The notes below the pieces were generated by a model. The model saw only the letters and a list, made by a program, of their open reading frames with translations, ran no database searches and was not told where the DNA came from. A DNA stretch of 64,000 nucleotides from assembly GCA_045605445.1 (NCBI GenBank), contig JAZUPZ010000029.1:26265-90264 (forward strand). The letters run 5' to 3'. Every line of letters begins with the position of its first letter. Position 1 is the first letter of the stretch. Both the position numbers and the translations under genes were made by a program. This DNA is from Clostridia bacterium (lineage in GTDB: Bacteria > Bacillota > Clostridia > RGIG6154). Below, piece by piece: positions 1,348 through 39,386 of the stretch.

Positions 1348-4300
1348 ATGAGTGGAGGAAAAATTATGGCAAAAAGATTACTGAGCGCATTACTTGCAAC
1401 TGTAATGCTTCTCACAATGTTCACTCTGCCGTCGTTTGCGGAAACCCTTTACAGCGGAACCTGCGGTGACGGTCTGACCTGGACAATTGATTCCGAAGGC
1501 GTGTTTACTCTTTCGGGAAGCGGCGCAATGCCGGACTATGCGAGGGGAACAACTCCCTGGTATAAGTACAGAGCGGAAATAACCTCTGTTGTTATTGAGC
1601 CGGGCATTACCCGTGTAGGCAATTATGCTTTTTATCTGACAAAAATACTTGACAACATAACCCTTTCCGACGATGTGACTGAAATAGGAAGCTACGCTTT
1701 TGCTACCTGCGGTTCTGTTTCAACAGCAACATTCGGAAGCGGAGTTTCGTCAATTGAAAAAGGTGCCTTTTCGGGAACTTCAATTGGGGAAATTACCTAT
1801 ATGGGCTCAGAAAAGCAGTGGTATGAAATTCAGACAGAAAGCGGAAACGACTCTGTTATAAATTCCTATGACATCAAATTTATGGATCCCGGAGTAAGAC
1901 TTGATTCTGACGGATATTACAGATTTTATATCGACGGGGAAATACAGACCAAATGGCAGGTAAGCCCCGAAGGCTATAAATATTATTTTTCAACAAGCTC
2001 TTCAAAATACGGTGCAGCATTAACAGGAAAACAACAGAAAATAAGCAGTACATATTATGATTTTACCGACGACGGAAAGCTTATTGAAAGCTACGATTCA
2101 AACGGTGATCCCGTTCTCTTCTGCGACCCTGAGCAGGGCTTTATTTACACAATTATTTATGATGCGGGTGAAGGCGTAGCCTCTGTTGCTGACAAAAGAT
2201 TCAGAGTTTCAACTCAGGCAGACCTTACCGTTACAGCAGAAAAAGAAGGATATATCTTTGCAGGATGGACCGATACCTTCAATTCAAATCAGTGCATTTC
2301 CTCTTACGAGGTAACCGGCGACGGAGTTCTCTATGCGGTTTATATCAACGGTGCAGACCTTAAGGTTGAGCTTTGCGACGACGGTTATTACAGATACTAT
2401 GTAGGCGGAGTTGCTCAGACCGGATGGCAGGTTGCGGCGGACGGATATAAATACTATTTTTCAACAAGCTCCTCAAAGTACGGCGCAGCAATGACCGGAA
2501 CAAGCGTTAAAATCGGCGGAAGCTATTATGATTTTACATCTGACGGAAAGCTTATTGAAAGCTACGATTCTTCAAACAATCCCGTTTTGTTTTACGATGA
2601 AAGTGCAGACTGCAGACCCGTTGTTACCTACGATTACAAAACAAACGGCGGTGAAGCTGCCGATGCTTCATCATTAAGAGTAACAAAGGGTGAAAAGGCA
2701 GACCTTTCTGTTGTTGCAAGAAAATCAGGTTCAGTTTTCGTTGGCTGGAATACAAACTCCGATGCGGCGGTTGCAATAACCTCTCTTACCGTAACAGAAA
2801 ATGTTACCCTTTATGCTATTTTTGCCGATTATGCAAACAACGAGGTTGTTCTCTGCGAAGACGGCTATTACAGATATTACATAGGCGGAGTTGCCCAGAC
2901 AGGCTGGCAGATGACTCCAACCGGCCATAAATATTATTTCTCAACCTCATCTTCAAAATATGGCGCGGCAATGACCGGAGCAAGTGTTAAAATCGGTGGA
3001 AGCTATTACGATTTTACAACTGAAGGTAAGCTTATTGCAAGCTATGATAATGACGGAAACCCCGTTCTTTACTATGACCCTCTTTATGATGCTTCTGTTG
3101 AAAAACATACTGTAACCTATGACTATAAGACAAACGGCGGAAGCTCAGCAGGAGAAGAAACAAAGCAGGTTATTCACGGAAATAAGGCAGACCTTACGGT
3201 AACTGCCGAAAAAGCAGACAGCACCTTCCTCGGCTGGAATACCGATAAGAATGCTGATACAGCTTTAAGCGAGCTTGTTGTTAATGAAGACGTTATTCTT
3301 TATGCAATCTTCAAAGAAAGCGGAAGCAGCAAGGTCGTTCTTGATTCTGACGGCTTTTACAGATACTATATTAACGGCGAGGCTCAGATAGGTTTCTGGG
3401 TACTTGACGGTTATAAATACTATTTCTCAGGCTCAAATGCAACAAAGGGAAATGCCTATGTAAGCCAGACTGCAACTATCGGCGGAAAGGAATATACCTT
3501 TAACAGCCGAGGCGTAGTTGTTGATTCAAACAACGTTCCCGTTGTTTACAAACCCAATGCAGAGGTTGTTTATCTTTCAGCGGTATATTCCGAAGAGGGA
3601 ACAACTCTTACCTGGACAGGCGCTGTGGAAAACGGAACTATTTCAGGCTATAAGGTTTACAGAGCTGAAGGGGAAAATGCAGGCGATGACGATTTCAGCT
3701 TAATTGCAGTTGTGAATGAAACTCTTGACGGAACTTCATACAAAGGAACATATAACTCCACTTATTCAAAATATGATTTTGAAACTCCGGTAGCTCAGGT
3801 TGAATTTGTTGACTCAACAACTCAGGCTGATAAGGTTTACATTTACAAGGTTGAAGCAATTGCAGAAGGAGATTCGGCATCTTCAAAGGTTGCAATAAGA
3901 ACAAAAACCGGAACAGAAAGATATGTTTCCTACGACGAGGCAACCGACAGATGGTATTACTACATTGCAGGAAGCATCCAGACCGGCTGGAAGGTAACTC
4001 CCGACGGCCACAAGTGCTATTTTTCAACAAGCACAACCTCAACCGGCGCTGCTCTTGAATATGACGCAAGCATCGGAAGCACGGTTTATAACTTCACCTC
4101 CTACGGTGCTCTTATAAACAGCTATGACTCAGATTCAAATGCAGTTCTTTACACAGAAGAAATTGAAATCCCCGGAGTATCGGTAAAAGAAATAAAGCTT
4201 GACTCCGACGGATACTACAGATATTATATCGACGGAATTATCCAGACCAAGTGGCAGACAGGCCCGGACGGTTACAGATATTTCTTCTCAACCTCCTCTT

Positions 4301-7300
4301 CGAAATACGGTGCTGCAATGACCGGTAAAGGTCAGAAAATCGCCAGTGATACTTACGACTTTACCTCTGAAGGTAAGCTTATTGAAAGCTACGATTCCGA
4401 CGGAAACCCGATTCTTTATTATGATGAGTCCTTCGATATGACCCCTGTTGTTACTTATGACCATAACAACGGCAGCGCTGTTCTTGAAAAGGTAAGAGTA
4501 AAGAAAGGCGAAAAAGCAGACCTTACCGTTACAGCTAAAATGGGTAACCTCATTTTCCTTGGCTGGAATACAGATAAAAATGCAACCGAAGCTCTTACAA
4601 GCTACACAGTTGATGGAGATGTAACTCTTTATGCAATTTTCACAGATACAGTTGCAGGCGGAACCTGCGGGGACAATCTTACCTGGCAGTACAAGGTTGA
4701 CAAAACTCTGTTTATAACAGGTTCAGGGGCTACATACAGCTGGAATAATGCTGAAGATGTTCCCTGGTATGCTTACAGAAACGAAATTGAAAGAGTGGTT
4801 CTTGACGAAGAAATAACAAATATCGGCAACAACACTTTGGCAGGCTTGTCAAAAATTAAAACACTTAATATCCCTGAAAAAACACTTTATATAACAACTT
4901 CTTTAATGGGATGTTCAGCTCTTGAAGAAATAACAGTATCTTCAGGTAACACAAGATATAATTCTATAGACGGCGTACTTTACGGATATGAAGATTCAAC
5001 TCTTATTCTCTATCCTCAGGCAAAAGAAGAAGCTTCTTACGACCTTCCTGCAACAGTTAAGGTAATATTCCCATATGCTTTTGCGGAAAGTAAGCTTGAA
5101 GAAATAACTCTTACTTCCATTATTGTTAAAATTGAAGAATATGCCTTCTACGGTTGCGAAAACCTCAAAAAGGTTAAATACCCATTAACTTCAGATAAAT
5201 GGGAAAAAGTTTATGTGCTTGATGGAAACGACTGTCTTACAAACGCTCTTGAATGTGCGGCAAAAATGTATACAGTAACCTACGATGCAAACGGCGGAAC
5301 ATGCGCAACATCTTCTGTTCAGGTAGCAGAAGGCAAACAGGCAGACCTTACGGTTACCGCAGAAAAAGCAGGATATGTTTTTGCAGGCTGGAACACGGAT
5401 AAAAATGCTGCAACAGGCTTTGAATCTTTCGCGGTTAATGAAGATATTACTCTTTATGCAATATATGTTGAAGCAAACGATGTGGTTCTTTGCTCTGACG
5501 GATATTACAGATACTATGTAGGAGGAGTTGCCCAGACAGGCTTTTGGATAATTAACGGCTATAAGTACTACTTCTCAACTGCAGCGGCAAAATACGGAGC
5601 GGCACTTACAGACTCAACAGTTAAAATCAAAGGCGATTCTTATACCTTTGACAGCAAAGGAAGAGTATGTGAAAACGGAGAAGCGGTTCTCTTTGCGCCG
5701 TCTGTTACGGCGGAAGCAGGGGAAATGTCAGCTTCTCAGAGCACAACCTCTCTTAAATGGTCAGTTTCAGCAACAAATGCAAAGGTAAACGGCTACAAAA
5801 TTTACAGAGACGGTGAGCTTATCGCTGAAGAAGAGTTTGCGCTCAATGCTCTCTTCATTCAGGGGGAATACAAAAACAACGGCTCAGGAGTTTATGAATA
5901 TATCTTTGAGCCGAAAACAACAGAAATAACTTATAGAGACGAACATCTCGACCAGAACACAACTTATAATTACACTCTTGCGGTAAGCTTTGAAGGCGGA
6001 GAGGTAAGCGTAGATGCTTCTGTTCTTACCGAGGCTTATGCTTCAAGATATGTAACATATGATAAGGCAACAGACGGCTGGTATTATTATATCAACGGCG
6101 TTGCTCAGTCAGGCTGGCAGGTAACTCCCGACGGTTATAAATATTATTTCTCAAAGAGCACAGGAAAAGCTCTTAAGGGTAAAAACGTAAGAATCGGCTC
6201 CGATAACTACGACCTTGCAGATTACGGCGCACTTATCGACTCTTACGACTCTGAAGGAAATCCGGTTCTTTACAGAGAAATTAACGGCTGGTATACCAGC
6301 GCCGAGGACGGAAGCATAAGATATTACGACAACAACGTTTACCGTACCGGATGGCAGTACATTGACGGATATAAATATTATTTCTCAATGTCAAAGGGTA
6401 ATCTTCTTACGGGAATGACTCAGGTAGGAAGCACAAAGTATGACCTTGGCGAAGACGGTGCCTGGGTTGGTTATTACCAGACAGAATATACCGTCGAAGA
6501 ATCACCTAAGGCAACAGATGTTGTTCTTGGCGAAGACGGCTATTACAGATATTATCCAAACGGGGAAGAGGGCGAACCTCTTACCGGCTGGAAGGTTCTT
6601 CCGGGTGAAGATGCTTATTATAAATACTATTTCTCTAAAGCTTCAACAAAATACGGTGCGGCTGTAACAGGCTATGCCGTTCAGGTTGGTATCGGGGAAT
6701 ACAACTTCTTCCCCACAGGTGCGCTTCTTAACGTAACTGTTGACGAAAACGGTCAGGCAGTAATGGAACCATACTCATTAAGCCTTGAACAGGGGGCTAA
6801 AAACGGCCTTATCCTTGATGAAGACGGAAAATACAGATATTATATCGACGGTGAATTCCAGTCAGGCTGGATTACAATCGACGGAAGCCGTTACCTTTTA
6901 AGAAGAGCAGACGGCTCAGCAGTAACCGACGTTAACTATAAATACGGAAGCTATTATTACGACTTTACAGAAGACGGAAAGCTCGTAAGAATGAAAAACG
7001 GAGCAAGCTCAATTTATAAAATAACCTTTGCTCCCGGAGAAGGAACAGGCGAAGAAATTGTTCTTAATAAGGTTGCAGAAGACTGCTTTAAGTATGTTCT
7101 TCCTGAAAATACCTTTGAAAAAGAAGGCTATGTATTCTTCGGCTGGTCAGACGGGGTTAACACTTATGCTGCCGGAACTAAAGTTCAGGTTATGAAGGAT
7201 ACTGTGTTTACCGCAGTCTGGGCAGAAGAAGAGGTTGAAATAATAGCAAACGGAACAGTTTCCGACACAATTACCTGGTCTCTTAATGCAAAGGGATTAC

Positions 7301-10300
7301 TTAAAATTGAAGGTTCGGGAGAAATGCCTGCTTACTTTATCGGAAGCTCTCCCTGGTACAGCTACAGAGAATCAATAAAATCCGTAAGCTTCTCAAATGA
7401 GCTTTTAAATATCGGTCAGTATTCAATGTACGGCTGTGCAATTGAAAGCGTTGAAATTCCCGAAGGTGTTAAGTACATCGGCGACCACGTTTTTGAAAAC
7501 TGTGACAACCTTAAAACAATATCAATTCCTGCAAGTGTAATTGATATTGAAACCTATACTTTTACCAGCACCCCGGCCCTTGAAAGCATAACAGTTGCAG
7601 AGGGCAATAAAAATTATTATTCCAAAGACGGAGTTCTCTTCTATAAATACGGCAGCAGTGTAAAAATTATTCGTTACCCTTCAGCAAAAGAAGGGGAATA
7701 TACAGTTCCCGAGGATGTAGTGTTGATTGACATAATGGCTTTTGAAAACTGCGATAAACTTACAAAGGTAACAATGACCAACGTTCAGAGCATTGACCGT
7801 TCTTCATTTGCTTCCTGCGGTGCCCTTGAAACAGTTGTTACAGGCGACAAGCTTATTACAATTGGAGATTACGCTTTCTCTGCTTGTACTTCTCTTAAGG
7901 AAATAACATTGCCAAAAACTCTTAAATCGGTAGGCAATTATGCATTTAATAACTGTAAAGCGCTTTATAAAGTAAACTATGGCGGTTCTTTTGCAACCTG
8001 GGTTAAAATCACAATCGGAACAAACAACAGTTATCTTAAAGGTGCAGGCTTTGTTTACGGCTCTAAAGACTACACAGTTACCTTCGTCGACTGGGACGGA
8101 ACTACAATTGCAACATTGACTGTTCCCGACGGTGAGGGAGCAACAGCTCCTTCTGACCCCGAAAGAGAAGGCTATACCTTCACCGGCTGGGATAAAGATT
8201 TCTCCGTTGTAACAGGGGATATAACAGTAACAGCTCAGTATGAGGCGAATGTTGTTGTTCCTGAAACCGTTGCTTCAGGTTCTTGCGGTAGCGGCATAAC
8301 CTGGGAACTTGATAGTCTGGGAACAATGACAATCAGCGGAACAGGAAGCATGAGAAATTACAGCAATGACAGCTCAACTCCCTGGTATTCATACAGCAGT
8401 CAGATTAAAAAGGTTGTAATCGGAGAGGGTGTAACAAGAATAGGCGATTATTCATTTGCTTATTGCAGAAACATAACCGAAGTAACCCTCCCTGACACCT
8501 TGAAAACATTGGGTTTATGGTCTTTGGCATATACAGGAATAACAAAGCTTGATGTGCCTGAAGGCGTTACAAAAATAAATGAACGTGCATTGCTTGGTTG
8601 CTTATCCCTTGCAGAGCTTTCGTTGCCGAAATCACTTAGTTTTATCGGGGCACTTGCTTTTAACGGTTGTACGGGGCTTGAAAAAGTAGTTTACTATGCT
8701 TCATATGCAACCTGGACAAAAGTAACCATTGAAACGGGAAATGACCATCTTACAGGTGTAAGATTTATTTATCAGTACTCCGAGTGCAAGGTAACCTTTG
8801 TTGATTTTGACGGCACTGTTCTTAAAACAGAAACGGTAGAAGAAGGTAACCGAGCAACCGCACCTGAAGCTCCTTCAAGAGACGGTTATACCTTCATTGG
8901 CTGGGACATTGAATTTTCAAATGTAACTGAAGATATAACTGTGACGGCACAGTATGAAAAAATATGTTATACAGTAACCTTTGTTGACTTTGACGGCACT
9001 GTTCTTAAAACAGAGTCGGTAGAGGTGGGCAGTGGCGCAACAGCCCCTGAAGATCCCACAAGAGATGGTTATACCTTCACAGGTTGGGATGTTGGCTTTA
9101 CAAACGTAACTTCAAACCTGACCGTAACAGCCCAGTACGAAAGTGTTGTTAAAACATATAAAGTTATCTTTATTGATGAAATCGGTAATATAATTTCTGA
9201 ACAGACAGTTGAAGAAGGAAAGTCTGCTGTTGAACCTGAAGCACCTGTAAAATCGGGATATACATTCATAGGTTGGAATAATGATTTTACAAATGTAACA
9301 AGCAATCTGTATGTTATGCCACAGTATGAAAAAATCAAGTTAAATTACACTGTGAATTTTGTTGATTATGACGCAACGGTGCTTAAAACAGAAACAGTTT
9401 TAGAGGGCAACGGAGCAACCGCACCTTCAAATCCTGAAAGAGAAGGATATATTTTCCTTGGATGGAACAGTCTTTTTGCAAAAATAGACAGAGACAGAAC
9501 AATTACTGCAATTTATGACCCGGAAGGTCTTGGAAATATTTCTCATACCGGCACTTTTGGAAATTACAGAGATTTGAATAATGCTCATTACACAAAAATC
9601 TTAATCTGGACTCTTTACGACACAGGGATTCTTACAGTTAACGGAGCAGCAACTGCATATGGTGTAATGACAACATCAAGCGGCGGTGCTCCATGGAGCG
9701 ATTATGCGTCATCTGTTAAAGAAGCAAGAGTTTCAAAGGGTATTAAAGAAATTCTTATTGGCGCATTTGCAAACTGTACCAATTTGACAAAGGTAACCTT
9801 CAGCGAAGATATTACAACAATCGGCAGAAACGTATTTTTCAACTGTCCTGCATTGACAGATATTTATTTTGAAGGCACAAGAGAACAGTGGGAAGATGTT
9901 GCAATTGACTCAACCAACGATAGTATGCTTGAAAATGTAACAGTTCATTGCTCAGATGATGTTAAAACTTATACAGTAACCTTCCTTGGCTACAACGGAC
10001 AGGTTTTAAGTGAACAGACAGTAAATGAAGGGGAAAGCGCAACAGCTCCCGAAGCTCCTTCGGTTGACCTTTATACCTTCACCGGTTGGAATGTTGATTT
10101 TTCAAAGGTTACTTCAGATTTAACCGTAACCGCTCAGTACGAACGTTCTTCATTTATGGTATATTTCATCGGATATGAAGGCATTATTGAAGCTCAGATT
10201 ATTCCAAAGGGTGGTTCTGCAACTGCACCTGATGTACCTGCGGAAATAGACGGAAATGTGTTTATCGGCTGGGACGGTGACTTTGAAAACGTTACATCAG

Positions 10301-11382
10301 ACCTTAACATTTATGCAATATACACAATGGTTGACCCGGGCCCGGGACCAATGCCTGAAGACGGCGGTGAGTTCGGCGACGGTCTTACCTGGCACTATGA
10401 CGGAAATATGACCCTTACAATCAGCGGTAATGGTGCAATTCCCGATTATGACCCAACAAGCGGTGATATGGTTCCGTGGCAGTCATACGATATGTATATT
10501 AAGGTAATTGAAATTGAAGAAGGAATAACCGGAATAGGCAGTTACGCTTTCGGATATCTTGTGGAAGCAATGAGCATTTCAATTCCGTCCACAGTAACCT
10601 ATATTTCCGAACAGGCGTTTTTGGAACTTATGGCAATTGAATTAGTAACAATCAGCGACGATAATAGTGAATATACAGTAAAAGACGGTATGGTATTTAC
10701 TAAGGATGAAACTCATCTTGTTTACTGTCCTACACATTACAGTTCAAATGTTGTTGAGCTCGACGAAAAGGTTAAAACAATAAACTCTTATGCTTTTGCA
10801 TATAACCATTTCCTTGAAGCGGTAAATGTTGATCCTGCAAATGAATATTTCCATTCAGATGAAGGAGTTTTGTATGAAACCGCAACTTCAACTCTTGTGT
10901 ACTATCCTGCAGGGAAAATGGATGAAACCTATACAATTCTCGAAGGAACGGAAATTGTCAGAGAAAAAGCATTTTATTACACCTCTACGCTTACAGAACT
11001 GTGTGTTCCTGCAAGTGTGAAGCATATTAACGGTAACTGCTTCTCCAATGCAACATCAATTGCAACAATAACCGTTTCAGAAGATAATGAAACTTATGCA
11101 TCTGTTGAAGGTAATTTAACAGATAAAGAAGGACTGAACTTGTATTATTGTCCTACCGGAACAGTTCCAAACGGAGTTCAGGAAATCTGGACAGGCGCTT
11201 TTGATTTGAACTGCGTGTTTGAAATAACAATCCCTGTAAGTGTTACACAGGTTCACTCAAATGTGTTCTATACATTTGTGAATCAGATAAATTATCTCGG
11301 CTCTTACGAAGAATGGAATGCAATTTATATTTCAAATGAGGGTAATGATTATCTTGAGTATGCAAATATAAACTACAATTAA
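1348..11382 (+). CDS. Giant (3344 aa) secreted cell-surface protein with cell-wall-binding YG repeats, BspA-type LRRs, Fn3 domains and Listeria-Bacteroides (Flg_new) repeats
   Basis: An RBS ggagg precedes the ATG. The N-terminal signal peptide is MAKRLLSALLATVMLLTMFTLPSFA. There are many GWQ..DGYKYYFS..SKYGAAMTG choline-binding-type repeats and YAF..C..L..ITLP BspA-LRR segments. The YTVTFVD.DGTVL...GYTF.GW modules are typical of Flg_new, and the TW..GYKVYR segments are Fn3-like. Confidence 0.9.
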   Translation: MSGGKIMAKRLLSALLATVMLLTMFTLPSFAETLYSGTCGDGLTWTIDSEGVFTLSGSGAMPDYARGTTPWYKYRAEITSVVIEPGITRVGNYAFYLTKILDNITLSDDVTEIGSYAFATCGSVSTATFGSGVSSIEKGAFSGTSIGEITYMGSEKQWYEIQTESGNDSVINSYDIKFMDPGVRLDSDGYYRFYIDGEIQTKWQVSPEGYKYYFSTSSSKYGAALTGKQQKISSTYYDFTDDGKLIESYDSNGDPVLFCDPEQGFIYTIIYDAGEGVASVADKRFRVSTQADLTVTAEKEGYIFAGWTDTFNSNQCISSYEVTGDGVLYAVYINGADLKVELCDDGYYRYYVGGVAQTGWQVAADGYKYYFSTSSSKYGAAMTGTSVKIGGSYYDFTSDGKLIESYDSSNNPVLFYDESADCRPVVTYDYKTNGGEAADASSLRVTKGEKADLSVVARKSGSVFVGWNTNSDAAVAITSLTVTENVTLYAIFADYANNEVVLCEDGYYRYYIGGVAQTGWQMTPTGHKYYFSTSSSKYGAAMTGASVKIGGSYYDFTTEGKLIASYDNDGNPVLYYDPLYDASVEKHTVTYDYKTNGGSSAGEETKQVIHGNKADLTVTAEKADSTFLGWNTDKNADTALSELVVNEDVILYAIFKESGSSKVVLDSDGFYRYYINGEAQIGFWVLDGYKYYFSGSNATKGNAYVSQTATIGGKEYTFNSRGVVVDSNNVPVVYKPNAEVVYLSAVYSEEGTTLTWTGAVENGTISGYKVYRAEGENAGDDDFSLIAVVNETLDGTSYKGTYNSTYSKYDFETPVAQVEFVDSTTQADKVYIYKVEAIAEGDSASSKVAIRTKTGTERYVSYDEATDRWYYYIAGSIQTGWKVTPDGHKCYFSTSTTSTGAALEYDASIGSTVYNFTSYGALINSYDSDSNAVLYTEEIEIPGVSVKEIKLDSDGYYRYYIDGIIQTKWQTGPDGYRYFFSTSSSKYGAAMTGKGQKIASDTYDFTSEGKLIESYDSDGNPILYYDESFDMTPVVTYDHNNGSAVLEKVRVKKGEKADLTVTAKMGNLIFLGWNTDKNATEALTSYTVDGDVTLYAIFTDTVAGGTCGDNLTWQYKVDKTLFITGSGATYSWNNAEDVPWYAYRNEIERVVLDEEITNIGNNTLAGLSKIKTLNIPEKTLYITTSLMGCSALEEITVSSGNTRYNSIDGVLYGYEDSTLILYPQAKEEASYDLPATVKVIFPYAFAESKLEEITLTSIIVKIEEYAFYGCENLKKVKYPLTSDKWEKVYVLDGNDCLTNALECAAKMYTVTYDANGGTCATSSVQVAEGKQADLTVTAEKAGYVFAGWNTDKNAATGFESFAVNEDITLYAIYVEANDVVLCSDGYYRYYVGGVAQTGFWIINGYKYYFSTAAAKYGAALTDSTVKIKGDSYTFDSKGRVCENGEAVLFAPSVTAEAGEMSASQSTTSLKWSVSATNAKVNGYKIYRDGELIAEEEFALNALFIQGEYKNNGSGVYEYIFEPKTTEITYRDEHLDQNTTYNYTLAVSFEGGEVSVDASVLTEAYASRYVTYDKATDGWYYYINGVAQSGWQVTPDGYKYYFSKSTGKALKGKNVRIGSDNYDLADYGALIDSYDSEGNPVLYREINGWYTSAEDGSIRYYDNNVYRTGWQYIDGYKYYFSMSKGNLLTGMTQVGSTKYDLGEDGAWVGYYQTEYTVEESPKATDVVLGEDGYYRYYPNGEEGEPLTGWKVLPGEDAYYKYYFSKASTKYGAAVTGYAVQVGIGEYNFFPTGALLNVTVDENGQAVMEPYSLSLEQGAKNGLILDEDGKYRYYIDGEFQSGWITIDGSRYLLRRADGSAVTDVNYKYGSYYYDFTEDGKLVRMKNGASSIYKITFAPGEGTGEEIVLNKVAEDCFKYVLPENTFEKEGYVFFGWSDGVNTYAAGTKVQVMKDTVFTAVWAEEEVEIIANGTVSDTITWSLNAKGLLKIEGSGEMPAYFIGSSPWYSYRESIKSVSFSNELLNIGQYSMYGCAIESVEIPEGVKYIGDHVFENCDNLKTISIPASVIDIETYTFTSTPALESITVAEGNKNYYSKDGVLFYKYGSSVKIIRYPSAKEGEYTVPEDVVLIDIMAFENCDKLTKVTMTNVQSIDRSSFASCGALETVVTGDKLITIGDYAFSACTSLKEITLPKTLKSVGNYAFNNCKALYKVNYGGSFATWVKITIGTNNSYLKGAGFVYGSKDYTVTFVDWDGTTIATLTVPDGEGATAPSDPEREGYTFTGWDKDFSVVTGDITVTAQYEANVVVPETVASGSCGSGITWELDSLGTMTISGTGSMRNYSNDSSTPWYSYSSQIKKVVIGEGVTRIGDYSFAYCRNITEVTLPDTLKTLGLWSLAYTGITKLDVPEGVTKINERALLGCLSLAELSLPKSLSFIGALAFNGCTGLEKVVYYASYATWTKVTIETGNDHLTGVRFIYQYSECKVTFVDFDGTVLKTETVEEGNRATAPEAPSRDGYTFIGWDIEFSNVTEDITVTAQYEKICYTVTFVDFDGTVLKTESVEVGSGATAPEDPTRDGYTFTGWDVGFTNVTSNLTVTAQYESVVKTYKVIFIDEIGNIISEQTVEEGKSAVEPEAPVKSGYTFIGWNNDFTNVTSNLYVMPQYEKIKLNYTVNFVDYDATVLKTETVLEGNGATAPSNPEREGYIFLGWNSLFAKIDRDRTITAIYDPEGLGNISHTGTFGNYRDLNNAHYTKILIWTLYDTGILTVNGAATAYGVMTTSSGGAPWSDYASSVKEARVSKGIKEILIGAFANCTNLTKVTFSEDITTIGRNVFFNCPALTDIYFEGTREQWEDVAIDSTNDSMLENVTVHCSDDVKTYTVTFLGYNGQVLSEQTVNEGESATAPEAPSVDLYTFTGWNVDFSKVTSDLTVTAQYERSSFMVYFIGYEGIIEAQIIPKGGSATAPDVPAEIDGNVFIGWDGDFENVTSDLNIYAIYTMVDPGPGPMPEDGGEFGDGLTWHYDGNMTLTISGNGAIPDYDPTSGDMVPWQSYDMYIKVIEIEEGITGIGSYAFGYLVEAMSISIPSTVTYISEQAFLELMAIELVTISDDNSEYTVKDGMVFTKDETHLVYCPTHYSSNVVELDEKVKTINSYAFAYNHFLEAVNVDPANEYFHSDEGVLYETATSTLVYYPAGKMDETYTILEGTEIVREKAFYYTSTLTELCVPASVKHINGNCFSNATSIATITVSEDNETYASVEGNLTDKEGLNLYYCPTGTVPNGVQEIWTGAFDLNCVFEITIPVSVTQVHSNVFYTFVNQINYLGSYEEWNAIYISNEGNDYLEYANINYN
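8791..9157 (+). repeat. Two adjacent near-identical ~183-bp coding modules (Flg_new repeats) inside the giant gene
   Basis: gtaacctttgttga(t/c)tttgacggcactgttcttaaaacaga... occurs at 8791 and again at 8975 with high nucleotide identity. Confidence 0.7.
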
Positions 11383-22185: not shown

Positions 22186-22216
22186 GAAAAAGTCAGGCAA
22201 AAGCCTGACTTTTTCT
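22186..22216. terminator. Bidirectional terminator hairpin agtcaggc-aaaa-gcctgact with flanking A/T runs between convergent genes
   Basis: An 8-bp perfect stem with a T-run overlaps the 3' end of the AraC gene. Confidence 0.55.
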
Positions 22217-23056
22217 GTATTGCTTCGGAGTAATTCCGACAGCTTTTTTAAATGCCTTGTAAAAACTTTTCGAGGATTCGTAGCCAACTGAATGTGAAAT
22301 CTCTTCAATAGACAGTTCTTTGCTTTTTAAAAGACGCTTGGCATTTTCAATTTTCAAAAAAAGAATTCTTTCGGTGAAGTTCTGGCGGTAAAGCTTTTTA
22401 ATAATCCGCTGAAGCTGTTGAACGCTTATAAAGGTCTGCTCCGACAAATCGGTAATGGAGGGCTTTTTGTTATAGTTCAAACTGAAATACTGGTCGATGT
22501 ACGAATACTGATATTCCGTAAAGCTTGACTGAGCGGGAATCTGCATTTTGTTGTTTTCTTCGGTCAATGAATTTTTGATAAGAAAAATCAATTCGGTAAG
22601 GCAGGAAACAATAAGGCGGTCGCTGTCCGCATAGCCCGACCTTAAGTAAAAGTTAATTCTGTCAAAGCAGCGAAACTTGTCAAGGTTTTCGACTTTGGTA
22701 ATCTTGTTTTTATTGAGCTTCAAAAAAGAGTCATAGCAGGAATTGTTTTCGTTGCTTTTTACCTTGTTTATAATATAGCCTATGGAAATATAGTGGGTCA
22801 GTTCCCTGTATACGGTGTTGTGAATGAAATTGGAATTTATAAAGGCGATGTCGCCGCTGTTTAACAAAACGTTGCTTTCATCGGTATAAATTTCCATGTT
22901 TCCGTTTATAACACATATTATCTCTTCGTGAAGATGAGAGTGGCTTATCATATCCTCGTTATCGGGAGAAATGGTGGACAGGCTGCTTATCATAAACAAA
23001 AACTGTGCATCGCCTATTGTGCACTGATACTCTTTTGCAATTTTTTCACCGTTCAT
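22193..23056 (-). CDS. AraC-family transcriptional regulator (cupin sensor domain plus HTH)
   Basis: The C-terminal domain has a twin HTH_AraC signature (ISHSVGYESSKSFYKAFKK..GITP..YR). Confidence 0.85.
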   Translation of the reverse strand: MNGEKIAKEYQCTIGDAQFLFMISSLSTISPDNEDMISHSHLHEEIICVINGNMEIYTDESNVLLNSGDIAFINSNFIHNTVYRELTHYISIGYIINKVKSNENNSCYDSFLKLNKNKITKVENLDKFRCFDRINFYLRSGYADSDRLIVSCLTELIFLIKNSLTEENNKMQIPAQSSFTEYQYSYIDQYFSLNYNKKPSITDLSEQTFISVQQLQRIIKKLYRQNFTERILFLKIENAKRLLKSKELSIEEISHSVGYESSKSFYKAFKKAVGITPKQYRKSQAFA

Positions 23057-34968: not shown

Positions 34969-36423
34969 GTGATACAAATGACAGTTGATAAAATGGCGGA
35001 AAGCCTTAAAAAATTAAGAAAAAAATTAAATATGTCCCAGCAGGAATTCGGCGAGGCGCTGGGAGTTTCAAACAGAGCCGTTTCAAAGTGGGAAAAAGGG
35101 CTTTCAAAGCCCGGAATGCAAACCTGGCTTAAAATTTCCGAGCGCTTCAATGTGCCTATTGATAAGTTTATAAAGCCCGCAAGGGAGGAAATAAAAACAG
35201 ACAGAGTTAAAACAAAGAAAACAACTCTTCCTTCAATAAAGGGGCTTTATAAAATCGGCAGAGGGCCTTCAAGCTCACATACAATGGCGCCTGAAAAGGT
35301 TTGTAAAATATTCAAGAAAAAATATGAAGATGCCGACTTTTTTGAGGTGCACCTTTTCGGCTCCCTTGCCAAAAACGGAAGGGGAAGCCTTACCGATAAG
35401 GTTATAGAAAGAGTTTTTTATCCCGTTGATGTGAAAATTCATTTCGACTATTCGGGAGTGGATCTGCCCCATCCCAACACTATGGAGCTTTATGCTTTCA
35501 AGAAAAATAAAAAGCTCGGCTTTATGAGGGCGTACAGCACCGGCGGCGGTGATATTGAGGCTGAAGGCGAGGTTCTTGAAACTGTAAATGATGTTTACCC
35601 CTTCAATAAGTTTGAACAGATAGCAAACTATTGCTTTGAAAACAACAAAAAGCTGTGGCAGGTGGTTGAAGAATTCGAGGGCGAGGGCATATGGGAGTAC
35701 CTTGAAAAAATATGGGAAACTATGAAAAAAACAATTCAAAAAGGGCTTGAAGAGGAGGGAACTCTTCCCGGAGGGCTTGACGTTAAAAGAAAAGCAAAAT
35801 TCCTTTTTAATCAGAGGCATATGGACGAAAGCAGCGAAACAAAGCAGAATCGAATTGTTTGCTCCTATGCTTTTGCAACCTCCGAGCAGAATGCCTGCGG
35901 CGGAATTGTTGTAACTGCGCCAACCTGCGGAGCTTCGGGAGTTCTTCCTGCGGTTTTGCTGTATAATCAGGAAAAAAGAGGATTTACGGATAAGGAAATT
36001 TACAGAGCTCTTGCGGTTGCGGGGCTTGTGGGAACGATAATAAAAACCAATGCCTCCATAAGCGGGGCAGAGTGCGGATGTCAGGCAGAAATCGGAACAG
36101 CGTGTTCAATGGCAGCGGCAGCTCTGGGGCAGCTTTTCGGTCTTGAAATTGACCAGATTGAGTATGCTGCAGAGGTCGCAATGGAGCACCATCTGGGACT
36201 TACCTGCGACCCTATTGCAGAGCTTGTGCAAATTCCCTGCATTGAAAGAAATGCAGTTGCGGCAATGAGAGCAATAAACTCGGTTAGTCTTGCAAATTTT
36301 CTGAGCGGCTCCAGAAAAATTTCCTTCGACCTGGTGATAGATACAATGTACGAAACAGGTAAAGATATGTCTAAAAATTACAGAGAAACAAGCGAAGGCG
36401 GACTTGCAAAGCTTTATAACTAA
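34969..36423 (+). CDS. L-serine dehydratase (Fe-S type) with an N-terminal XRE-family HTH domain fused
   Basis: Residues 1-60 form an HTH_3 (LRKKLNMSQQEFGEALGVSNRAVSKWEKG). The GPSSSHTMAP and CGG..VTAPTCGASGVLPAVL motifs of the serine dehydratase family follow. Confidence 0.7.
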   Translation: MIQMTVDKMAESLKKLRKKLNMSQQEFGEALGVSNRAVSKWEKGLSKPGMQTWLKISERFNVPIDKFIKPAREEIKTDRVKTKKTTLPSIKGLYKIGRGPSSSHTMAPEKVCKIFKKKYEDADFFEVHLFGSLAKNGRGSLTDKVIERVFYPVDVKIHFDYSGVDLPHPNTMELYAFKKNKKLGFMRAYSTGGGDIEAEGEVLETVNDVYPFNKFEQIANYCFENNKKLWQVVEEFEGEGIWEYLEKIWETMKKTIQKGLEEEGTLPGGLDVKRKAKFLFNQRHMDESSETKQNRIVCSYAFATSEQNACGGIVVTAPTCGASGVLPAVLLYNQEKRGFTDKEIYRALAVAGLVGTIIKTNASISGAECGCQAEIGTACSMAAAALGQLFGLEIDQIEYAAEVAMEHHLGLTCDPIAELVQIPCIERNAVAAMRAINSVSLANFLSGSRKISFDLVIDTMYETGKDMSKNYRETSEGGLAKLYN

Positions 36424-36540: not shown

Positions 36541-39312
36541 ATGAAAAATACACAGCAAAAAGCAGCTGCAAAAAAATTTGTTGAATACTGGAAAGATAAA
36601 GGTTATGAAAAGGGCGAAAGTCAACCCTTCTGGCTTGAATTGCTTGAAAGCGTGTTCGGAATTGAAAATCCTGCTCATTATATAAAGTTTGAAGAGCAGG
36701 TTCACCTTGATCATACAAGCTTTATTGACGGGCATATTCCCGCAACTCATGTTTTAATTGAACAAAAGGGAAGAAATAAGGATTTAAGAAAGGGTATAAA
36801 GCAGTCCGACGGAAGCTTTCTTACTCCTTTTCAGCAGGCACAGCGCTATTCGGCTGTTTTGCCATACTCTCAGAGACCTCGCTGGATAGTAACCTGCAAC
36901 TTTGAAGAATTTTTGATTTACGATATGGAAAAGCCCACCGGTGAACCGGAAAGTATTCTTCTTGAAAACCTTGAAAAAGAGTATTATCGTTTGCAGTTCC
37001 TTGTAGATGCTCAGGACGATAACGTAAAAAAAGAAATGGAAATATCCATTCAGGCGGGAAAAATAGTAGGCGTTTTATACGACGAGCTTCTTAAACAGTA
37101 TAACGATGCTGAAAGCGAAGAAATACTGAAAAGCCTTAATATGCTTTGTGTTCGCCTTGTTTTCTGTCTTTATGCTGAAGATGCCGGTATTTTTGGCGGA
37201 CATAATAAATTTCATAACTACTTAAAAGCAACTCCCGTCAAATATGCAAGACAGGCATTGATTGACCTTTTTAAGGTTCTTGATACAAAAGTTGAGGACA
37301 GAGACAGATATATGGACGAAGCTCTGGCTCAGTTTCCTTATGTGAACGGGGGCTTGTTTGCCGATGAAAAAATAATAATTCCGCCCCTTAATGAAAAAAT
37401 AATCAATCTTATTCTTGAAAAAGCAAGTGAAGATTTTGACTGGTCAGATATTTCTCCTACCATTTTCGGCGCCGTATTTGAAAGCACGTTAAACCCCGAA
37501 ACAAGGCGTTCCGGCGGAATGCACTACACCTCTATTGAAAATATTCATAAGGTTATTGACCCGCTTTTTCTTGATGAACTGAAGGAAGAGCTCGAGGAAA
37601 TAAAAGACCTGAAGGTTCAGAAAACAAAAGAGGCAAAGCTTTACGGCTTTATTGAAAAAATTTCAAAACTTAATTTTCTTGACCCTGCCTGCGGAAGCGG
37701 AAATTTTCTTACAGAAACCTATATTTCTTTAAGACGTCTTGAAAATGAAGCAATAAGAGAAATAACAAACGGGGAAATTCTCTTTGACACGGTAATTGAT
37801 ATAAAGGTTTCAATAAAACAGTTTTACGGAATTGAAATTAACGATTTTGCCGTAACAGTAGCAAAAACAGCTCTCTGGATTGCAGAAAGTCAAATGCTTA
37901 AAGAAACAGAGGAAATAATTCATATGAATCTCGATTTTCTGCCGCTTAAATCTTATGCCAACATTGTTGAGGGCAACGCCCTCCGACTTAACTGGAACGA
38001 TGTCATACCTAAAGAAAATCTTAACTACATTATGGGCAATCCGCCGTTTGTTGGTACAAAAATGATGGTAGCCGAACAGAAGCAAGATACAAAGGCGGTA
38101 ATTGGTGAATGGAAAAACTATGGCACTTTGGATTATGTTGCTTGTTGGTACAAAAAGGCTACAGATTATATTACTGATACAAGAATAAAGTGTGCCTTTG
38201 TTTCAACCAATTCTATATGTCAAGGAGAGCAGGTAACGCACCTTTGGAAACCTTTGTTTGATGCGGGAATACAAATTGTCTTTGCTCATGGCACTTTCCA
38301 ATGGGACAGCGAAGCGTCGTTAAAGGCTCATGTTCATTGTGTTATTGTTGGCTTTGCTATGTCAAATGTTATTTTGGATAAATATTTGTTTGATAACGGT
38401 AGATACAGAAAAGTGAATAATATAAATGGCTATCTTGTTGAAGCACCGAGTGTGTTCATTGAAAATCGCAAACAACCGCTATGCGATGTTGCGGCTATGC
38501 ACAACGGTTGTAAATTTTTGGACGATGGCAACTATGTGTTTACTAAAGAAGAAATGCTCGATTTTATTTCAAAAGACCCTGTGGCAAAGCTATTTATCAG
38601 ACCGTATTTAGGGGCACAAAACTTTATTAGTGGAGAAAAATTATTTTGTATATGGTTGAAAAATGCTGACCCGTCAGAAATGCGGAGGTCGCATTTGGTT
38701 ATGGAACGAGTAAGAAAAGTTAAAGAATTCAGACTGTCTTGCAATAGTCCGGACACTCAAAAATATGCTGAACGCCCCACGCTACCTACAAGACTTGCAT
38801 ATTATAGTGCGGATAGAAATACAGATGTACTTTTGGTTCCTATTGTTTCTTCTCAAAGGCGGAAGTATCTCCCGATTGGTTATGTGGATAAGGATACCAT
38901 TGTATCGTATTCTTGTATGGTAATTCCAGAAGCAACGACGTATCAATTTGGAATTTTGGAATCGAATGTTCATACCGCTTGGATGCGCACCTTCTGCGGT
39001 AGACTGAAAAGTGATTATAGATACTCAAATACGATTGTCTACAACAACTTCCCTTGGCCGTCGCCAACAGAGGAACAAAAGGCGAAAATTGAAGAAACTG
39101 CTCAGGCGATACTTAATGCAAGGGCGCTTTATCCCGATTGTTCTCTGGCAGATTTGTATGACGAGCTTACAATGCCTCCCGAGCTCAGGAAGGCACATCA
39201 GGAGAATGATAAGGCGGTTATGAGAGCCTACGGTTTTGATGTTAAAACCACAACCGAATCTTCCTGTGTTGCAGAGCTTATGAAAATGTATCAGAAATTA
39301 ACAGAAAAATAA
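36541..39312 (+). CDS. MmeI-family Type IIL (type IIG) restriction-modification enzyme: N-terminal endonuclease, N6-adenine methyltransferase, C-terminal target recognition domain
   Basis: The N-terminus is MmeI-like (PFWLELLESVFGI...HVLIEQKGRNKDL, D...EXK), an NPPF methyltransferase motif is present (YIMGNPPFVG), and the length of 923 aa is similar to MmeI. Confidence 0.8.
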   Translation: MKNTQQKAAAKKFVEYWKDKGYEKGESQPFWLELLESVFGIENPAHYIKFEEQVHLDHTSFIDGHIPATHVLIEQKGRNKDLRKGIKQSDGSFLTPFQQAQRYSAVLPYSQRPRWIVTCNFEEFLIYDMEKPTGEPESILLENLEKEYYRLQFLVDAQDDNVKKEMEISIQAGKIVGVLYDELLKQYNDAESEEILKSLNMLCVRLVFCLYAEDAGIFGGHNKFHNYLKATPVKYARQALIDLFKVLDTKVEDRDRYMDEALAQFPYVNGGLFADEKIIIPPLNEKIINLILEKASEDFDWSDISPTIFGAVFESTLNPETRRSGGMHYTSIENIHKVIDPLFLDELKEELEEIKDLKVQKTKEAKLYGFIEKISKLNFLDPACGSGNFLTETYISLRRLENEAIREITNGEILFDTVIDIKVSIKQFYGIEINDFAVTVAKTALWIAESQMLKETEEIIHMNLDFLPLKSYANIVEGNALRLNWNDVIPKENLNYIMGNPPFVGTKMMVAEQKQDTKAVIGEWKNYGTLDYVACWYKKATDYITDTRIKCAFVSTNSICQGEQVTHLWKPLFDAGIQIVFAHGTFQWDSEASLKAHVHCVIVGFAMSNVILDKYLFDNGRYRKVNNINGYLVEAPSVFIENRKQPLCDVAAMHNGCKFLDDGNYVFTKEEMLDFISKDPVAKLFIRPYLGAQNFISGEKLFCIWLKNADPSEMRRSHLVMERVRKVKEFRLSCNSPDTQKYAERPTLPTRLAYYSADRNTDVLLVPIVSSQRRKYLPIGYVDKDTIVSYSCMVIPEATTYQFGILESNVHTAWMRTFCGRLKSDYRYSNTIVYNNFPWPSPTEEQKAKIEETAQAILNARALYPDCSLADLYDELTMPPELRKAHQENDKAVMRAYGFDVKTTTESSCVAELMKMYQKLTEK

Positions 39313-39318
39313 AATCAA

Positions 39319-39350
39319 AACAAACACCGACAGAAATCTGTCGATGTTTG
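39319..39350. terminator. Hairpin terminator (13-bp stem caaacaccgacag/ctgtcggtgtttg, one G-U) serving mscL and possibly the RM gene
   Basis: On the minus strand the stem is followed by ttttgatttt. Confidence 0.55.
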
Positions 39351-39358
39351 CACGTTCA

Positions 39359-39386
39359 CTATTAACTATTATCTATTAACTATTAT
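39359..39386 (+). repeat. Perfect 2-copy 14-bp tandem repeat ctattaactattat
   Basis: The repeat lies in the intergenic region between the RM gene and mscL. Confidence 0.6.

Follow-up and report, generated by a model that had tools for sequence, protein, structure and literature searches.

A probable exchanged specificity cassette in an MmeI-family restriction-modification gene of a Clostridia bacterium

Introduction

Does a single-chain restriction-modification (RM) gene carry a specificity segment whose ancestry differs from that of the rest of the gene, and if so, where are the seams? The question is raised by a gene for a 923-amino-acid (aa) protein that lies within 64,000 nucleotides (nt) of DNA from a Clostridia bacterium (contig JAZUPZ010000029.1 of GenBank assembly GCA_045605445.1, positions 26,265 to 90,264 of the forward strand). 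We refer to this whole stretch as the window and count positions from its first letter. A preliminary description had recognized the gene as an MmeI-family (Type IIL) enzyme and, from a shift in leucine and glutamine codon choice, had proposed that its target-recognition domain (TRD) was recently swapped. Our analysis indicates that the gene is probably a recombinant, in which a host-adapted backbone is joined to a cassette of separate ancestry within an intact single-chain MmeI-family enzyme. In what follows, "backbone" and "cassette" denote the segments delimited in Table 1.

Results

Codon usage is discontinuous within the gene

The 42 other open reading frames (ORFs) of the window served as the host codon reference; they use CTT for 62% and TTG for 8% of leucines, and CAG for 86% of glutamines. 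Across codons 501 to 840, the interval singled out in the preliminary description (approximately 38040 to 39060), CTT encodes 4 of 23 leucines and CAG 2 of 11 glutamines, compared to 34 of 60 and 18 of 23 in the rest of the gene (Fisher p = 0.0014 for Leu and 0.0020 for Gln). Under host usage, the probabilities are 2e-5 for four or fewer CTT codons among 23 and 8e-7 for two or fewer CAG codons among 11. The same interval also contains more CCG, GCG, ACG, TCG, and TGT codons. An unbiased scan for the worst-adapted segment of the gene returned codons 636 to 848 (38446 to 39084), with a score that was matched by 1 of 200 synonymous shuffles.

Codons 504 to 810 (38050 to 38970) form a segment that was bounded by homology breakpoints alone, independently of codon usage. 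This segment favors CAA and TTG, TTA, or CTA over the host's CAG and CTT, and when its codons were shuffled synonymously with all amino acids kept in place, only 1 of 10,000 shuffles was equally poorly adapted to the host (z = -3.7). Its centered codon score is -0.204, while that of the N-terminal 503 codons is -0.015. Among 156 control windows of 300 codons drawn from other genes (mean 0.012, standard deviation 0.036, minimum -0.102), none scored as low as the cassette, which lies about six standard deviations under their mean. The Fisher tests, shuffles, and control windows thus agree with the codon shift that had been reported. The accompanying claim that normal usage returns over the last ~80 codons holds in direction but not in degree, as the last ~110 codons score -0.107 and host-like usage is only partly restored. 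Among the other ORFs of the window, the least host-like is at 22193 to 23056 on the minus strand (GC content at third codon positions [GC3] of 0.49, eight TTG leucine codons, centered score -0.081), and its deviation is far below that of the cassette.

Sliding windows of GC and GC3 across the gene revealed no shift (GC3 0.34 vs. 0.32). A GC3 scan, which had been suggested as a check, would therefore have missed the codon effect; the discontinuity is seen in synonymous codon choice only, because the host itself is AT-rich (39% GC). The flat GC and GC3 profiles, together with the small counts (23 Leu and 11 Gln codons), are what might be expected if there were no true heterogeneity and the Leu and Gln differences were sampling noise or a by-product of the amino acid composition of the TRD. 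We give this explanation practically no credence: it is already refuted by the amino-acid-preserving permutations and the control windows, and the compositional boundary coincides with the homology breakpoints described below.

Backbone and cassette have different nearest relatives

Querying with the full-length protein gave a list of 119 relatives at 66 to 76% identity. Among these listed relatives, mean identity to the window protein is 80% in the N-terminal domain and 47% in the TRD. Three of them (P0004, P0005, and P0008) invert this norm, being 78 to 80% identical in the TRD and 61 to 66% identical in the N-terminal domain; with P0002 included, the ranges are 78 to 81% and 61 to 75%. The opposite arrangement is found in P0007, which is encoded on L001, a metagenome-assembled genome (MAG) contig labeled "uncultured Eubacteriales bacterium" (lineage of GCA_964566065.1). 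P0007 is 95% identical to the window protein over residues 1 to 475, 30 to 40% identical over residues 500 to 790, and ~90% identical over residues 820 to 923. The RM gene of L001 is located downstream of the same gene, encoding a serine dehydratase with a helix-turn-helix (HTH) domain, that precedes the RM gene in the window. Over this serine dehydratase gene and the initial 1.5 kb of the RM gene, the DNA of the two is 83 to 85% identical. We therefore regard the L001 gene as the positional ortholog in a sister species.

Compared to L001, the window gene is 92% identical in aa and 87% in nt sequence over the backbone, and ~43% and 55% identical, respectively, over the cassette. The relation is reversed for L002, L004, L006, and L007, which match the window at 77 to 82% aa identity in the cassette and 71 to 75% in the backbone; for L004, the corresponding nt values are 78% and 66%. 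The expectation that the TRD segment would have nearest relatives unlike those of the rest of the gene was thus borne out, and the discordance supports a cassette whose lineage would differ from that of the backbone of the same gene.

Codon alignments place the switch precisely on its 5' side. Up to and including codon 503, at the end of ...NYIMGNPPF, the window is nearly the same as L001 at every base; from codon 504, it tracks L004 and L006. Directly after NPPF, nt identity to L001 drops from ~88% to ~45%, and it recovers near codons 810 to 835. L004 and L006 are 83 to 89% identical to the window at the nt level in codons 511 to 600 and 72 to 79% identical in the TRD; over this whole stretch, L001 is at 40 to 60%. 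The 5' junction lies within codons 496 to 504, at NPPF, in a stretch that is nucleotide-conserved among homologues. The block that would have been exchanged starts directly after NPPF and is therefore not confined to the TRD but also takes in ~130 residues of the methyltransferase domain, the part that follows motif IV.

An exact 15-nt direct repeat, TTGTTGGTACAAAAA, occurs at 38048 to 38062 and 38142 to 38156, with its copies 94 nt apart. The first copy sits exactly on the 5' cassette junction (codons 503 to 508) and the second, in another frame, overlies a conserved CWYKK motif; the repeat may be due to chance.

Two of the cassette relatives are carried on mobile elements: P0002 (L002/L003) is encoded beside MobL and a tyrosine integrase, and P0005 (L004) beside a serine recombinase and phage-like genes. 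A mobile element may likewise have been the donor of the window cassette.

A mosaic composition recurs across the family

We compared base composition in 82 further homologous genes for which DNA was available, mostly one per species (83 genes with that of the window). In 80 of the 83, the block homologous to codons 505 to 810 has a lower GC3 than the N-terminal part of the same gene. Mean GC3 is 0.32 in the block, 0.50 in the N-terminal part, and 0.52 in the C-terminal part, and the block is also richer in CAA and TTR codons. In L073, for example, GC3 falls from 0.91 in the N-terminal part to 0.35 in the cassette and returns to 0.85 in the C-terminal part. Along the gene, the GC3 profile of the family drops between codons 496 and 511 and rises again between codons 811 and 826, and both steps are sharp. 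The mosaic that had been described for this copy is therefore real but not peculiar to it; it is a family-wide property.

At 75 loci, flanking ORFs provided an estimate of host GC3. Backbone GC3 tracks the flanks closely (slope 0.89 and offset +0.03 for the N-terminal part; slope 0.88 and offset +0.05 for the C-terminal part), whereas cassette GC3 is 0.14 lower and has a slope of 0.45 against flank GC3. For hosts with a GC3 of 0.55 to 0.7, the values are 0.62 in the flanks, 0.66 in the N-terminal part, 0.39 in the cassette, and 0.66 in the C-terminal part. The codon usage of the window cassette cannot be told apart statistically from that of the other cassettes taken together and is very unlike that of the host, and it thus shows no detectable amelioration. 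We rejected the idea that the block is simply a fast-evolving region drifting toward AT: GC3 is independent of amino acid conservation within either compartment, with poorly conserved backbone bins having high GC3 and well-conserved cassette bins having low GC3.

Backbone and cassette identities are also decoupled. Across 196 proteins, the two are barely correlated (Spearman 0.13), and in 1469 of 2140 pairs with backbones at least 85% identical, the cassettes are less than 55% identical. These proteins carry 31 cassette types at ~60% identity. When we sampled 400 pairs with a shared backbone and different cassettes, the divergent block began at residues 500 to 514 in 398 of them, and its ends were spread over residues 790 to 850 (median 807).

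The clearest case involves two metagenome contigs from different samples, L091 (480 to 3242) and L092 (893 to 3643). Their RM genes are 100% identical at the nt level in codons 1 to 503, apart from a mismatch in codon 421, and in codons 827 to 920, and 50 to 75% identical in the cassette, where the first difference is codon 504. A separate 10-codon patch (codons 817 to 826), divided from the main block by an identical stretch, switches K-S-D to E-M-R, the predicted determinants of recognition position 6. This pair represents a very recent cassette swap. The converse is seen in L004 and L006, whose cassettes are 94% and backbones 75% identical at the nt level, as in a transfer across backbones. 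Together, the family-wide decoupling, the fixed start of the block, and these two cases indicate that the exchange of cassettes is common and ongoing in the family and that its 5' junction is fixed at NPPF; the window gene would be one instance of such exchange.

These comparisons also bear on whether the mosaic was created during metagenome assembly, by joining the reads of two co-occurring organisms or strains at conserved stretches of homologous MmeI genes. The closest relatives are indeed MAGs, and the 5' junction does fall in a nucleotide-conserved stretch. An artifact of this kind would, however, need two in-frame switches that return to the same host-like backbone, with host genes on either side, in a 248-kb contig. 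It would also leave unexplained why 80 of 83 separately assembled genomes, and the genome of an isolate (L036, Anthropogastromicrobium aceti strain H6_35), have the same architecture, and why identical backbones with different cassettes come from different samples. We consider it very improbable.

Age and direction of the probable exchange

At least one swap would be later than the split of the window and L001 species. Several observations stand against the proposed recombination. The 3' junction is diffuse, extending over codons 810 to 835. No near-identical donor module was found, the best cassette relative being 82% identical in aa and 78% in nt sequence. Synonymous-codon identity between the cassette and its best relatives is 0.49 to 0.56, which is near saturation and is inflated by their common AT-richness, while for the backbone and L001 it is 0.70. 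The cassette of L001 is likewise not host-like. Synonymous identity so near saturation gives no date for the event, and the swap may have taken place in L001, in the window lineage, or in both. Cassettes are AT-rich even where host GC3 is 0.7 to 0.9, and among the 83 species representatives there is no close AT-rich donor for the cassettes of high-GC hosts, the best matches being 57 to 76% identical at the nt level. The composition of the cassettes may therefore owe something to a cause besides recent import, and since AT-rich cassettes persist family-wide, composition may be a poor clock. The part of the preliminary description that proposed a swap is supported, while the recency of that swap is not demonstrated and the exchanged block exceeds the TRD.

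Searches with the cassette alone found nothing closer. A protein search returned fragments only, at most 68% identical; it also failed to list the known full-length relatives of ~80% identity and is thus little informative. A scan of species-representative genomes gave no match, although the source genome itself was also missed, a metagenome scan gave 65% identity at best, and a viral scan gave no match.

In a rival explanation, the cassette would be long resident, or ancestral with L001 as the swapping lineage, and its AT-rich, non-host usage would be kept by a cause peculiar to this part of MmeI-family genes, such as selection on translation rate or folding, or on properties of the DNA or mRNA. 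The recurrence of low GC3 in the same block of 80 of the 83 homologues agrees with this, as does a cassette GC3 that, with its slope of 0.45, is neither host-like nor constant. So do the distant nearest sampled relatives of AT-rich cassettes in high-GC hosts and the fact that window-type cassettes are near synonymous saturation yet all AT-rich. Long residence, however, leaves unexplained the discordant nearest relatives, the sharp breakpoint at NPPF, and the identical backbones with different cassettes. It also sits poorly with a synonymous composition that is independent of amino acid conservation and with a window cassette whose usage cannot be distinguished from that of the cassette pool. 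Moreover, no mechanism is known by which selection would favor AT-rich codons in a single half of a gene in host after host. On balance, we find long residence rather unlikely and favor a recombinant gene.

Predicted consequences for DNA recognition

To predict recognition, we transferred the DNA-contacting residues of MmeI (PMC4833311) and published covariation rules (PMC2731914) to the window protein and to its relatives. K823 and D825 of the window protein form the K...D pair that leads to G at recognition position 6 (PMC4833311). At position 4, R827 together with the small residue S791 predicts a purine; at position 5, the methylated A, there is a conserved V/L; and at position 3, the pair I768/Y790 falls outside the published rules. 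L001 resembles the window at positions 4 to 6 (R/S, V/L, and K/D) and differs from it at position 3, where R/D specifies G, and in the residues for positions 1 and 2. Among the cassette relatives, L002 and L007 equal the window at every mapped position, and L004 and L006 differ at position 6 only, where E...R specifies C.

The predicted determinants of positions 1 to 3 are held by the cassette. The swap would thus have re-targeted these three positions and retained ...R-A-G at positions 4 to 6, and because a single TRD serves both restriction and modification, cleavage and methylation would have been re-targeted together. The residues at positions 1, 2, 3, and 6 also differ from those of MmeI (TCCRAC), so another recognition sequence is expected for the window enzyme.

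The gene encodes an intact MmeI-family protein

All five Pfam MmeI models match the 923-aa protein in canonical order, with E-values of 1e-21 to 8e-92, far over the cut-off (Table 1). Its alignment with the MmeI structure 5HR4 also runs the length of the protein (residues 9 to 921, E = 9e-193, 42% identity over 876 aligned residues), which is to our knowledge the sole relative with a solved structure. The nuclease triad aligns with the three MmeI residues whose mutation abolishes cleavage (PMC4833311). In the 5HR4 alignment, the adenine-box residues H328 and W588 are present as well; gamma-class methyltransferase features, including His314 and Trp570 of MmeI, are absolutely conserved in 341 family members (PMC4833311).

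The preliminary assignment to Type IIL is upheld by these results. The domain order, the D/E/K triad, motif I ahead of NPPF, the conserved His and Trp, and a stand-alone gene are all as in the MmeI family, so that every defining feature that can be looked for in a sequence is present. The family is further defined by cleavage ~20/18 nt away from an asymmetric site and by modification of a single strand. With all five domains, intact residues, unrelated neighboring genes, and no second MmeI-like sequence in the window, the evidence supports an intact, solitary MmeI-family gene, and the protein is predicted to be enzymatically active.

Table 1. Coordinates of the RM gene, its domains and motifs, the segments of the mosaic, and an adjacent hairpin
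Feature	Window position	Strand	Residues or codons	Evidence
MmeI-family (Type IIL) RM gene, complete	36541..39312	+	923 aa	ORF list, translation, Pfam
MmeI_N			residues 9-186	Pfam
MmeI_hel			residues 198-273	Pfam
MmeI_Mtase			residues 360-617	Pfam
MmeI_TRD			residues 635-841	Pfam
MmeI_C, C-terminal helical domain, backbone part	39070..39306	+	residues 844-922	Pfam; 77-87% nt, ~90% aa identity to L001
PD-(D/E)XK nuclease residues	36727..36768	+	D63, E74, K76	Aligned to MmeI D70, E80, K82
Methyltransferase motif I, LDPACGSGNFL	37678..37710	+	residues 380-390	Aligned to MmeI 360-370
Methyltransferase motif IV, NPPF; also the probable 5' recombination junction	38038..38049	+	codons 500-503	Alignment to MmeI; codon alignments
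Host-adapted 5' backbone (nuclease, helical spacer, methyltransferase through motif IV)	36541..38049	+	codons 1-503	84-93% nt, ~95% aa identity to L001
Probable exchanged specificity cassette (methyltransferase after motif IV and most of TRD)	38050..38970	+	codons 504-810	Codon score; discordant relatives
3' junction zone	38971..39045	+	codons 811-835	Gradual return of similarity to L001 backbone in codon alignment
Predicted determinants of recognition positions 6 and 4	39007..39021	+	K823-S-D825 and R827	Aligned to MmeI E806, R808, R810
Terminator-like hairpin, 14-bp stem followed by a T-run	39320..39351	-		In 85-bp spacer between RM gene and convergent mscL

Locus and neighboring genes

None of the neighbors identified by Pfam between 24223 and 45732 is related to restriction. 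They include genes for citrate synthase, a GHMP kinase, SpoIIR, polysaccharide synthesis, HU, an S4-domain protein, the HTH-fused serine dehydratase, MscL, an aminotransferase, a sugar transferase, ATP-grasp ligases, and an MmgE/PrpD-family protein; the presence of a SpoIIR-family gene suggests that the host is a spore-former. Among the ORFs scanned with Pfam in this interval, one of which had no match, there is no separate methyltransferase or S subunit, in line with what had been reported. Searches with tblastn and blastn found no second MmeI-like or cassette-like sequence in the window. Repeats in the window are short (at most 29 nt) and mostly imperfect, and no recombinase is present among the Pfam-scanned neighbors. 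With silent cassettes, flanking repeats, and a recombinase all absent, we rejected a shufflon, phase variation, and intragenomic domain movement as sources of the mosaic.

A scan for promoters upstream of the RM gene yielded nothing convincing. The terminator-like hairpin downstream of it (Table 1) may serve mscL, the RM gene, or both. Adjoining the hairpin in the same spacer, the 14-mer CTATTAACTATTAT occurs as an exact tandem duplicate at 39359 to 39386.

The L-serine dehydratase gene upstream (34969 to 36423, plus strand; SDH beta and alpha domains) encodes an N-terminal XRE-type HTH_3 domain, an unusual joining of a DNA-binding domain to a metabolic enzyme. The fusion is kept in L001 (398 to 1843). 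There, a GH42 beta-galactosidase gene (1853 to 3835) separates the serine dehydratase gene from the RM gene, while the two are adjacent in the window, and the window's synteny downstream of the RM gene (mscL) is absent.

Elsewhere in the window, a 3344-aa ORF (1348 to 11382, plus strand) with BspA-type leucine-rich repeats and 11 Listeria-Bacteroides repeat domains presumably encodes a giant surface protein. About 20 ORFs on one strand (40051 to 63770, plus strand) appear to form a large cluster for glycan or modified-polysaccharide biosynthesis, the first five of which encode, according to Pfam, a DegT-type aminotransferase, a sugar transferase, two ATP-grasp/L-amino-acid-ligase-like proteins, and an MmgE/PrpD-family protein.

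Several MmeI-family homologues lie between an upstream Fic-domain gene and a downstream HEPN_Swt1-like gene, a recurring setting that resembles a defense island (L093, 542 to 5227; L094, 1133 to 8079; L002, 5911 to 6843). L094 additionally has T5orf172 and Mrr_cat genes. The Fic/HEPN_Swt1-like neighborhood is absent from the window.

Discussion

The recombinant that we propose would be a single polypeptide comprising a PD-ExK nuclease, a helical spacer, a gamma-class N6-adenine methyltransferase, a TRD, and a C-terminal helical bundle, with the one TRD common to restriction and modification. Its backbone (codons 1 to 503 and ~830 to 923), which is shared with the positional ortholog of the sister species, would have been resident long enough to acquire host codons. 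The cassette (codons 504 to ~810) would have entered from another MmeI-family gene, by homologous recombination or by gene conversion, with one crossover in the invariant NPPF motif-IV region and another in the conserved end of the TRD.

The prototype of Type IIL, MmeI of Methylophilus methylotrophus, shares with the window protein the five-domain single chain in the same order, the D/E/K triad, the His/Trp adenine box, motif I, NPPF, and alignable specificity positions. In the MmeI-family papers that we consulted, specificity changes are described as point substitutions in a shared TRD, and a term search of one of them (PMC2731913) turned up neither cassette exchange nor a mosaic composition.

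Replacement of a module by recombination is a classical route to new specificity in Type I S subunits (StySB and StySP to StySQ), and "domain movement" is known in Type I and Type IIG systems of Helicobacter pylori (PMC3874165, PMC3077401). The window gene resembles these in that a recognition module would be replaced through recombination in conserved flanks while the catalytic framework is kept, and it is a clear example of this known way of changing restriction specificity. It differs in that its module is internal to a Type IIL enzyme made as a single chain and extends into the methyltransferase, covering the part after motif IV. Exchange in the MmeI family, moreover, appears to take place between species of differing base composition and not within one species. 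The window has neither flanking repeats nor a second copy, unlike H. pylori domain movement, so the change would not be intragenomic domain movement of that kind.

Another parallel is offered by the Type ISP enzymes LlaGI and LlaBIII. These single polypeptides are, according to the abstract, more than 95% identical across nuclease, motor, and methyltransferase and differ in TRD and specificity (PMC3553950), which is the same backbone/cassette pattern as in L091/L092 and in the window and L001. LlaGI and LlaBIII belong to an ATP-dependent, translocating class with an Mrr nuclease and a helicase, and the abstract of that paper does not mention a compositional discontinuity.

PglX of bacteriophage exclusion (BREX) systems has no PD-ExK nuclease domain at its N terminus and acts together with other brx genes. 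We rejected an assignment of the window gene to this type of methyltransferase since its product has a nuclease domain with an intact triad and since no brx-like genes were seen among the Pfam-scanned neighbors. What PglX/BrxX does have is an MmeI-like methyltransferase-TRD module that recognizes 6-bp asymmetric sites (PMC11341690, PMC11842806).

The findings for the family may reach further than those for the single gene. In one interpretation, for which we see about as much reason to accept it as to doubt it, the genes of this clade, from gut and rumen Firmicutes and occasionally other phyla, are all built of two compartments: a backbone ameliorated to the host and a standard exchangeable cassette that is AT-rich (mean GC3 ~0.32) whatever the host. 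The cassette would start one codon past NPPF and reach as far as the conserved GRL(K/E)x(D/R)YRYS stretch. Its AT-richness would imply either a pool of cassettes, probably on mobile elements, whose exchange outpaces amelioration, or an unrecognized selective reason for AT-rich coding. A cassette that is family-wide, sharply bounded, and persistently AT-rich is the part of our findings that may be new; the MmeI-family publications that we consulted contain no description of such a two-compartment construction.

For the window enzyme and its sister ortholog, a testable prediction follows, namely, that the two share ...RAG at positions 4 to 6 and differ at positions 1 to 3. The natural junctions, mapped to the codon directly after NPPF on the 5' side and to codons ~810 to 830 on the 3' side, and the identical backbones that carry unrelated cassettes in L091 and L092, offer a practical guide to module swapping in MmeI-type enzymes that goes beyond point mutation. 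If a family-wide AT-rich cassette is confirmed, it would bear on the rate at which restriction specificities turn over in gut communities and on the reservoir from which these specificities are drawn.

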